Positions 1 to 2,116 of a stretch of 64,000 bases of DNA are shown here, piece by piece. The first letter of the stretch is position 1, and each line of letters opens with the position of its first letter. The notes under the pieces were generated by a model. That model saw only the letters and a list, made by a program, of their open reading frames with translations. It made no database searches and had not been told where the DNA came from. The stretch covers positions 2,144,001 to 2,208,000 of the forward strand of contig OZ253496.1 of NCBI GenBank assembly GCA_965262115.1, read 5' to 3'. Position numbers and translations under genes: made by a program. Origin of the DNA: Nitrospinales bacterium. GTDB lineage: Bacteria > Nitrospinota > Nitrospinia > Nitrospinales > VA-1.

Positions 1-543
1 ATAGGAATGGGGGAAAAGCTCGATGCGTTGGAGCCGTTTCATCCTGATCGGATTGTTTCCCGCATTCTTGGCATGGGCGATGTCATGTCCCTGGTCGAAA
101 AGGCGGAAGAAAATTTCGAGCAGGAAGAGCAGGAAGAGCAGGAAAAGTTACAGAAAAAAATCAGGGCTAACGCTTTTACTCTGGAAGATTTTCGCGGCCA
201 GTTGAAACAGGTTCAGAAAATGGGGTCGATGGAGCAGTTGCTGAGCATGATCCCCGGTGCAGGAAAACTGGCGAAGGGTTTGAAAATCGATGACCGCGCT
301 TTTGTGCAGGTGGAGGCGATCATCAGTTCGATGACGCAGAGAGAACGCGAGAAGCACAACATCATCAATGCCAGCAGAAAGCGCAGGATCGCTCAGGGCA
401 GTGGTACCCGGGTGAACGATGTTAATAAATTGTTAAAGCAGTTTGCGCAAATGCAAAAGATGATGAAAAAGGCTGCCCGTGGCGGCGGCATGAACTTCGG
501 CAGTCTGATGGGCGGACGGGGTATGCCGGGCCGGTTCTTTTAA
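1..543 (+). CDS. ffh: Signal recognition particle protein Ffh, C-terminal part (5' truncated by window edge)
   Basis: GEKLDALEPFHPDRIVSRILGMGDV, an M-domain (FTLEDF...RRIAQGSG) and a Met/Gly-rich tail; lies upstream of rpsP. Confidence 0.96.
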   Translation: MGMGEKLDALEPFHPDRIVSRILGMGDVMSLVEKAEENFEQEEQEEQEKLQKKIRANAFTLEDFRGQLKQVQKMGSMEQLLSMIPGAGKLAKGLKIDDRAFVQVEAIISSMTQREREKHNIINASRKRRIAQGSGTRVNDVNKLLKQFAQMQKMMKKAARGGGMNFGSLMGGRGMPGRFF

Positions 544-616
544 ACGAGTTTTTATTGGATGCATTAATGCGGTTTATTGAGCCGCAAACATTTCGGGCCA
601 GACCCGAACAGTACCC

Positions 617-943
617 CTTGTATGTTGTTCATAAGGGGAATTTGTAGTAGTTGTACCTGTGAGCCCTGTGGGAAGCCGGTTTTGTGTTTTCCACAAGCTC
701 CCAGGATTTGATTCAGGGCACAATAGATCGTTTACCCCTTAGGCTTTTAAGCCCGTCCCGAAGCGCAGATCGTTGTGTCCTTGTATGTTGTTCATAAGGG
801 GAATTTGTAGTAGTTGTACCTGTGAGCCCTGTGGGAAGCCGGTTTTGTGTTTTCCACAAGGCTCACAGGGTTTGATTCAGGGCACAATAGATCGTTTACC
901 CCTTGGGCTTTTAAGCCCGTCCCGAAGCGCAGATCGTTGTGTC
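617..943 (+). repeat. Tandem duplication of the IS110 left end (617-779 and 780-943)
   Basis: Direct alignment of the 163- and 164-bp copies shows one indel and three substitutions. Confidence 0.95.
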
Positions 944-1012
944 CTATTTTGATTAACCCGAACAGTTGCCTGGGCCACTGAGCCCGCATCGGCAAGGCTG
1001 GGAGACCAAATT
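780..1012 (+). ncRNA. Bridge RNA, intact copy: 5' hairpin, target-binding loop (~879-945) and donor-binding loop (~946-1011)
   Basis: Stem AGGGCACAAT/GTTGTGTCCT encloses TTTACCCCT (895-903) and GTCCCGAAG (919-927), which match the target. A second loop holds ACAGTTGC (962-969) and GCAAG (992-996), which match the donor junction. Exact RNA ends are not known. Confidence 0.85.
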
Positions 1013-1963
1013 ATGAATCAGAAACCCCATTTTATTGGCATCGATATTTCTAAACTCCATCTGGATGTTGCTGACAGCATGACTCAAGAAACCTGGCAAA
1101 CCGCTAACAATGAGGAAGGGATTGCTGGTTTGGTCGAGAGTTTATCCGCCTTAAATCCTCCATTGATCGTTTTGGAAGCCACAGGCGGCTTAGAGATCCC
1201 GTTGGCTTCGGCCCTGGTTGCGGGTCGACTGCCAGTAGCCGTGGTCAACCCGCGACAAGTTCGTGATTTTGCCAAAGCCACCGGGAAACTGGCAAAAACC
1301 GATGTCATTGATTCTCTTGTGCTGGCCCATTTTGCCAAGGCCGTACGTCCTGAGGTCAGGAAAATCAAAGACGAAGAATCTCTTGAACTCTCAGCTCTGG
1401 TGACACGCCGTCGCCAGTTGATCGAGATGCTGACCAAAGAAAAAACCCGTCTAAAACAAGCTCCAAAATGGATATGTAAAGACATTAAGGAGCATATCGA
1501 ATCTCTTAAAAAACGCTTGCGAAAAATCGATGGCGACCTTTCCAGAACCATCAAAAACAGTTCTGCCTGGCGTGAGCACGACCAGATTATACAAAGTGTT
1601 CCCGGTGCCGGTCCCGTTCTGGCTGTCAACCTCTTGGCCGGGGTTCCGGAACTTGGAGTTCTTAATCAGAAGCAAATCGCCGCCCTCATCGGTCTCGCTC
1701 CCCTCAATCGGGACAGCGGAAAGTTCCGGGGCCGCCGGTGTATCTGGGGCGGCCGCGCCAATGTGCGTGCCGCTTTATACATGGCCGCCGTCACTGCCAT
1801 GCAGCATAATCCCGTGATTCGTACCTTTTACACACGCCTCATCGAAAAGGGCAAACCCTTTAAAGTTGCCATTACCGCATGCATGAGAAAGTTATTAACG
1901 ATCATCAATACCATGATCAAAACAAAAACACTCTGGAATGAAAATCTCATTACCAGCACTTGA
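1013..1963 (+). CDS. IS110-family recombinase/transposase
   Basis: RuvC-like DEDD residues in GIDISK, LEATGG and KTDVIDS; C-terminal NRDSGK serine motif and GGRANVRAALYM. Confidence 0.96.
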   Translation: MNQKPHFIGIDISKLHLDVADSMTQETWQTANNEEGIAGLVESLSALNPPLIVLEATGGLEIPLASALVAGRLPVAVVNPRQVRDFAKATGKLAKTDVIDSLVLAHFAKAVRPEVRKIKDEESLELSALVTRRRQLIEMLTKEKTRLKQAPKWICKDIKEHIESLKKRLRKIDGDLSRTIKNSSAWREHDQIIQSVPGAGPVLAVNLLAGVPELGVLNQKQIAALIGLAPLNRDSGKFRGRRCIWGGRANVRAALYMAAVTAMQHNPVIRTFYTRLIEKGKPFKVAITACMRKLLTIINTMIKTKTLWNENLITST

Positions 1964-1980
1964 CATTTAACACAGTTGCT
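1960..1980 (+). promoter_or_regulatory. -35 half (TTGACA, 1960-1965) of the circle-junction promoter; the -10 TATGTT lies at 621-626 (also 784-789)
   Basis: Joining the right end to the left end at CT gives TTGACA-17 nt-TATGTT. Confidence 0.85.
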
Positions 1981-2116
1981 TCGGGGCATGAAGACAAATG
2001 AAGGGATGTTACACGTGACGCTGGACTATAAGTAATAGTTTTGCTTGCGCATTATTTATTGGCGGGTGTTAACGCCATATATACCGGGATAAGCCCGTAA
2101 CCTAGGAGAAAGTACA

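Follow-up and report, generated by a model that had tools for sequence, protein, structure and literature searches.

The closest described relatives of the element analysed here are IS621 and ISCro4 (IS622), in which a recombinase with DEDD and Tnp domains is combined with a CT core, a long left end that encodes a 5′ hairpin, a target loop, and a donor loop, a predicted promoter at the circle junction, and a palindromic, intergenic target (PMC11208160, PMC11208158, PMC13626964). These features, the promoter as a match in sequence, are shared by an IS110 element located in a 64,000-nucleotide stretch of a Nitrospinales genome (GCA_965262115.1, contig OZ253496.1, positions 2,144,001 to 2,208,000), which is referred to here as the window and to which coordinates refer unless noted otherwise. 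However, the element in the window has two copies of its left end as far as the base of the target loop, its guides are different, and its protein is a distant relative.

Partial duplication of IS110 elements with a one-sided boundary is already known. Hu et al. (2026; 10.64898/2026.08.14.744561) described 468 cases of tandem noncoding repeats, and the locus in the window resembles those expanded loci in having a tandem noncoding unit beside the recombinase, one boundary of which coincides with a terminus while the other matches no guide. The repeat units in that study retain almost only LD matches, and the RD-only unit found here is therefore the less usual form; it is more like the RD-only partial circles reported in the same work, in which the other side is also without a guide match and partial fragments reintegrate. 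The available text of that study names multiple donor loops at one locus and no doubled target loop. In CazIS110-1, one-sided top-strand transfer of an RD junction yields the same type of joint (new left arm, CT, RD), and tandem by-products that revert were recovered in 3/96 excision clones (10.1101/2025.10.25.684509). In that system a cognate target receives the transfer and the cargo is repeated as a whole, whereas the recipient here would be a noncognate internal CT.

Two other systems have tandem modules. ISPpu9/ssr9 (PMC12288879) has tandem copies of a small-RNA module and nested alternative ends, so that circles of different sizes are conceivable, as they are here. However, its modules have two cognate ends, are present at many loci, and were shown to form circles, whereas the present case is a single, one-sided locus known from sequence. 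TIGR arrays (PMC12045711) are tandem guide modules related to bridge RNA loops, but with many units, different spacers, and a Tas protein, compared to two units with identical guides inside an IS110 element. Doubled target loops or guide arrays in IS110 elements were not found in the literature searched, which took in few subscription papers, and none is described in the available text of PMC12045711, 10.64898/2026.10.21.760802, or 10.64898/2026.03.19.712850.

Anatomy of the element and its doubled left end

The recombinase has both Pfam domains of the IS110 group, the DEDD residues, and the catalytic serine (Table 1), and its closest relatives of solved structure are ISCro4 and IS621 (E values of about 1e-30 to 1e-33). 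Judged by its sequence, the element is an IS621-like, ordinary member of the IS110 group. In a related genome (G019) the target is empty, with a single CT between the same neighbours, which indicates that the insertion truly begins at position 617; the inserted element has the CT core at both ends (617 and 1979). The flank consensus TACCC is present at 22/26 left ends of the genome.

Table 1. Coordinates of features in and around the element (positions in the window)
Feature	Positions	Strand	Remarks
3′ part of upstream gene	1..543	+	ORF; same neighbour in 5/5 relatives
Left target half-site AGTACCC	610..616	+	empty site in G019; 5/7 identical to left target guide
Outer CT core	617..618	+	true left end of insertion
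Outer unit	617..779	+	core, right-donor half-site, −10 box, 5′ hairpin, target-binding loop; haplotype B plus private A741
Predicted −10 box TATGTT	621..626	+	circle-junction promoter; repeated at 784-789
Outer target guides	731..763	+	left 731-739, right 757-763; A741 breaks first G-C pair of inner stem-loop
Inner CT	780..781	+	new joint: foot of target-loop stem (TTGTGTC) to right-donor end (TGTAT)
Inner unit	780..943	+	canonical left end, haplotype A
Inner target guides	895..929	+	left 895-903, right 921-927, predicted handshake bases 928-929
Internal CT between target loop and donor loop	944..945	+	putative noncognate recombination site
Single donor-binding loop	955..1005	+	left donor guide 962-970, right donor guide 991-996
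IS110 recombinase, 316 aa, intact	1013..1963	+	PF01548 + PF02371; D11, E55, D97, D100, S235
Right end	1960..1980	+	−35 box 1960-1965, left-donor half-site ACAGTTG 1972-1978, CT core 1979-1980
Right target half-site TCGGG	1981..1985	+	in 23/26 right ends; empty site in G019

The assignment of the target loop is backed by folding and by covariation, with a compensatory change in 6/19 pairs among 12 sequences. Across relatives the left target guide shifts with the flank: the four core-adjacent bases match in six of the seven guide versions, and three of the four match the flank in the seventh. The right target guide pairs at 7/7 positions with the core and the right target. The donor loop, which is absent from the single-sequence fold, fits the joined ends, because its left guide is the same as ACAGTTG of the right end and its right guide pairs with CTTG plus a wobble; in several relatives the right donor guide is the exact complement of CTTGTA.

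Joining of the ends would place TTGACA (1960-1965) 17 nt upstream of TATGTT, a match in sequence to a promoter that is predicted on that basis. In the chromosome there is no −35 box upstream of either TATGTT, and the plus strand was empty in a promoter and terminator scan of positions 300 to 2200. Read-through transcription is enough for excision of IS621 (PMC13626964). The IS110 copy has the same orientation as the gene upstream of it, and this gene is a possible source of read-through transcription into the element. We take the upstream gene, by its sequence, to be ffh-like (SRP54). Eleven nucleotides of the host flank (602-612) are identical to the start of the donor loop (956-966); this identity is probably due to chance, because it is shared with relatives that lack the insertion.

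In the assembly the outer unit (163 nt) and the inner unit (164 nt) are direct repeats, and their alignment has exactly four differences: a 1-nt gap near 697, C701, A706, and A741. Both units begin with CT-TGTAT and another CT follows the second. The left and right target guides have the same sequence in the two units, and both target stems are present in the predicted fold of the long RNA (627-1012). Scores with a target-loop covariance model were 86.2 and 80.1 bits for the two units, the inner unit itself being in the model together with 11 relatives. An earlier note on this DNA had described the repeats, their CT boundaries, and their identical guides, and had read the locus as two target loops with one donor loop and a second CT-TGTAT end; the repeats and guides were confirmed in these respects, and the anatomical reading is supported.

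Head haplotypes among the copies in the genome

The genome contains 23 full-length copies of the element (the window's copy, 20 close copies, and 2 copies at 87% identity), plus one 5′-truncated copy and fragments. All full copies start with CT-TGTAT (TT in one of them) and end with ACAGTTG-CT. The repeat is far beyond chance, and the doubled head is present in one of the 23 full-length copies, that of the window, and in 0/22 others.

The differences between the two units are mostly shared with other copies. Haplotype B (the gap, C701, and A706) is carried by the outer unit, 6/20 other close copies, and both diverged copies, and haplotype A (G/A/G) is carried by the inner unit and the other 14/20. 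Thus, the earlier claim that copy 1 has four changes holds for the number of differences but not for four mutations, since three of them are a shared haplotype. The same three match six intact sister copies, and the gap and A706 are also found in relatives, so that decay of copy 1, the "decaying scar" of the earlier note, is ruled out as the origin of the differences, and a simple in-place duplication does not account for them either. Only A741 is private. The G that it replaces forms a G-C pair in 12/12 aligned loops, and A741 weakens the module, the energy of which is −21.5 kcal/mol in the outer unit versus −26.4 kcal/mol in the inner unit. At the genome-wide rate, ∼0.03 private changes would be expected in 163 nt. 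The change is therefore somewhat unexpected; as a single base, it could be a sequence error.

The body of the window's element (element positions 166-1201) is distinguished by a single site from that of the B-headed copy at genome position 2114483, at a distance of 30 kb, and differs from the body of each of the other 22 copies at no fewer than 6 sites. Given this near identity, the outer head and the body seem to derive from a single original element, into which the inner head was apparently imported. The linkage between head and body is weak evidence, because the copies are mosaic (the four-gamete test fails for 55/120 informative site pairs) and gene conversion at a later time would yield the same alleles.

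Several other copies have features of their own. Six (e.g., at 2013360 and 1896475) share a 10-nt deletion that frameshifts the recombinase gene, and these copies at six loci may have moved in trans or been converted. In the diverged copies at 1834459 and 1931070, one base of the right target guide is changed and the right flank is altered to match (GCGGG versus TCGGG); to judge from guide and flank, this is natural retargeting within one genome. Ten left ends (e.g., at 657568, 1775110, and 1811279) have the same upstream flank, presumably a fragment of another, IS3-like insertion sequence, but differ in the flank downstream, a pattern that points to composite amplification or to recombination among copies. 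Read as DNA, the left target guide (window 895-907) is itself a near-perfect target, with 7/7 positions of the left arm, the core, and 3/5 positions of the right arm. The truncated copy at 2034326 has lost its head at this guide site, with flank and guide fused, which could reflect self-targeting or a deletion between short direct repeats. At 2519310-2519440, two left-end fragments are joined head to head through the 5′ hairpin as an inverted repeat, and this joint is not at a CT.

The joint at 780 and its possible origins

The sequence at the joint is TTGTGTC-CT-TGTAT. Identity to the outer junction extends over 3 nt (CCT) and identity to a circle junction over 2 nt, with no shared nucleotide after the CT. 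At 25/26 left ends in the genome the core is preceded by CCC, and the joint at 780 is the sole exception; consequently, it is not at the boundary of a genomic repeat. CT accounts for 65/1200 dinucleotides in the element, and there are 18 CCT sites. By simple arithmetic, an arbitrary break would fall into the terminal-core window in about 3 cases in 1200. The position of the joint agrees with the top-strand cut just after CT in IS621 (PMC11208158). The placement of the joint within the 3-nt core window, without the usual CCC, argues for the earlier suggestion that the recombinase itself acted at CT cores.

The internal CT (944-945) matches the guide arms at 3/7, 1/7, 0/5, and 2/5 positions, and the means for internal CTs are 2.0, 1.6, 1.1, and 1.4. 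A half-match target of the kind described by Xie et al. (2026; 10.64898/2026.08.31.748434) is excluded at this CT because no guide arm matches; in that study, 27/168 insertion sites were without a match. The left target guide of an element in a relative (L014 in genome G050), TTTTGTC, agrees at 6/7 positions with the left arm of this internal CT site, and no L014-like element with this guide was found in the genome of the window.

We give a probability of about one-half to the explanation that an off-target CT at the base of the resident copy's target loop received a donor end through the action of the recombinase and that the head of a second copy was then brought in by homologous recombination. 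The right-donor end, which could have come from a circle, from a copy in the genome, or from a partial circle of 164 nt, would have been transferred onto the internal CT by a one-sided reaction of the top strand, and the product would have been resolved by homologous recombination in the shared downstream sequence. In a variant of this path, an RD-only partial circle from an A copy would have entered a B copy. The sequence shows that the two heads are the two haplotypes of the genome, that the joint is at a CT core, that the guides are the same, and that the doubled form is seen once. The doubled state would be short-lived, since a 163-nt repeat can collapse again. Either CT might serve as the left end, because both carry the donor half-site, and alternative ends are used in this manner by ISPpu9 (PMC12288879); use of the inner CT is predicted to give a normal element and use of the outer CT a 1,364-nt element, the RNA of which would have two target loops and one address.

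The same joint would be formed if the recombinase had transferred the element's own right-donor end, or that of the sister chromatid, onto the internal CT in place, with gene conversion of one head afterwards. The geometry expected is identical, tandem products do arise in CazIS110-1 (the 3/96 excision clones of 10.1101/2025.10.25.684509), and 9 other sites are incompatible with the head patch, which implies that heads are shuffled among bodies often. However, two events would be required within the short life of an unstable repeat, and conversion from the adjacent unit would tend to equalise the heads. We consider this sequence of events unlikely, although it deserves real weight. Slippage or template switching independent of the recombinase, at the 3-nt CCT microhomology, promoted by hairpins at both sites and accompanied by gene conversion, is quite improbable. 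CCT is common to both sites, and the hairpin-type inversion at another left end and the copy that lost its head between longer direct repeats indicate that nonenzymatic rearrangements of left ends may occur, but CCT is found at 18 sites in the element and a hit on the terminal core is expected in only about 3 in 1200 cases for an arbitrary break.

The junction at 779/780 is known from the assembly, and it is unlikely, at a level of risk that should be kept in mind, that a chimeric read or a mis-resolved repeat joined two copies of the insertion sequence. Contigs from four sequencing runs contain the element, those of two runs with both head types, and among the pieces listed none bridges 779/780 and A741 is not seen in any of the four runs. 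The difference in haplotype between the two heads also speaks for an artefact. In addition, the region from 10 to 100 kb of the contig is anomalous, with a GC content of 0.37 to 0.43, long-ORF cover of 0 to 0.21 (versus 0.68 to 0.91 elsewhere), and many satellite-like repeats; the first 100 kb appear to contain foreign sequence, possibly of eukaryotic origin, that was fused to the bacterial contig, and a misjoin at another place in the assembly is thereby suggested. On the other hand, run contigs drop rare variants and those runs may represent other populations, the flanks of the element are syntenic with the empty site in G019, and the joint lies in a 3-nt window at the enzyme core. An assembler that broke at a repeat boundary would be expected to retain the CCC of 25/26 left ends. 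Of the near-tandem segments beyond 100 kb, which number 14, only the two here come from a family with >20 copies, and no other high-copy element there has such a repeat. Thus, the doubled left end is probably a real, recent, and unspread recombination scar.

Recurrence and significance

Searches of other genomes found the target loop in single copy. With the target-loop model (up to 42 candidates scored per genome, with many genomes fragmented), 15 loops were detected in 10/119 other genomes of the phylum, all of them single, so that comparable duplications, proposed as something to look for in relatives, did not turn up among them. The double-left-end pattern was present in 1/120 genomes, the window's own. 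In 9/64 parts of a collection of genome contigs the same pattern gave 121 loci (80 with long flanks), with an IS110 gene at none of them by tblastn, and in metagenome contigs a degenerate pattern of the loop-foot/donor junction gave 26 loci, one of which was beside an IS110 gene, with no target loop found in it. No relative was found in viral contigs, the 5 hits inspected among 2908 IS110-like hits in plasmids had one target loop each, and a distant DNA search returned 6 hits to the donor loop only. A 17-nt repeat with 160-nt spacing in another element (L187) is unrelated and lies downstream of the gene. The left end of one relative (L009 in G041) is ∼50 nt shorter than those of sister elements, with part of the 5′ hairpin region missing.

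It has been proposed that the duplicate could be a route to new or multiple specificities, as a minimal guide array. As a present function, selected for a larger dose of target loop or for diversification to a second address, this is very improbable. The predicted fold does contain both target stems, target and donor loops are functional in vitro when separate (PMC11208158), and an RNA with only the target loop supports the first strand transfer (10.1101/2025.10.25.684509). However, the units do not carry different guides, their sole private change breaks an invariant pair, and the layout is neither conserved nor spreading, with 0/22 doubled among the other full copies and 0/15 among the target loops of relatives.

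As it appears in the assembly, the locus represents one unspread event with identical guides, within the described class of partial IS110 duplications. To judge from the sequence, such an event is a possible route to two-target guides. It is conceivable, although improbable, that the locus is a snapshot of the birth of a two-target bridge RNA: the hinge CT would repeatedly receive the element's own donor end off target, so that a complete extra target module from another IS copy is stacked in front of the guide, after which the outer end could excise the element in its doubled form and the second loop could acquire a new address. If this were true, an incoming head with another guide would yield a two-address RNA in a single step. 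A further warning from the locus is that the guide gene of a bridge editor may itself become a recombination site for the editor. As regards the natural gain or change of target addresses by bridge RNAs, the joint names a concrete reaction, the joining of a donor end to the CT between the loops.
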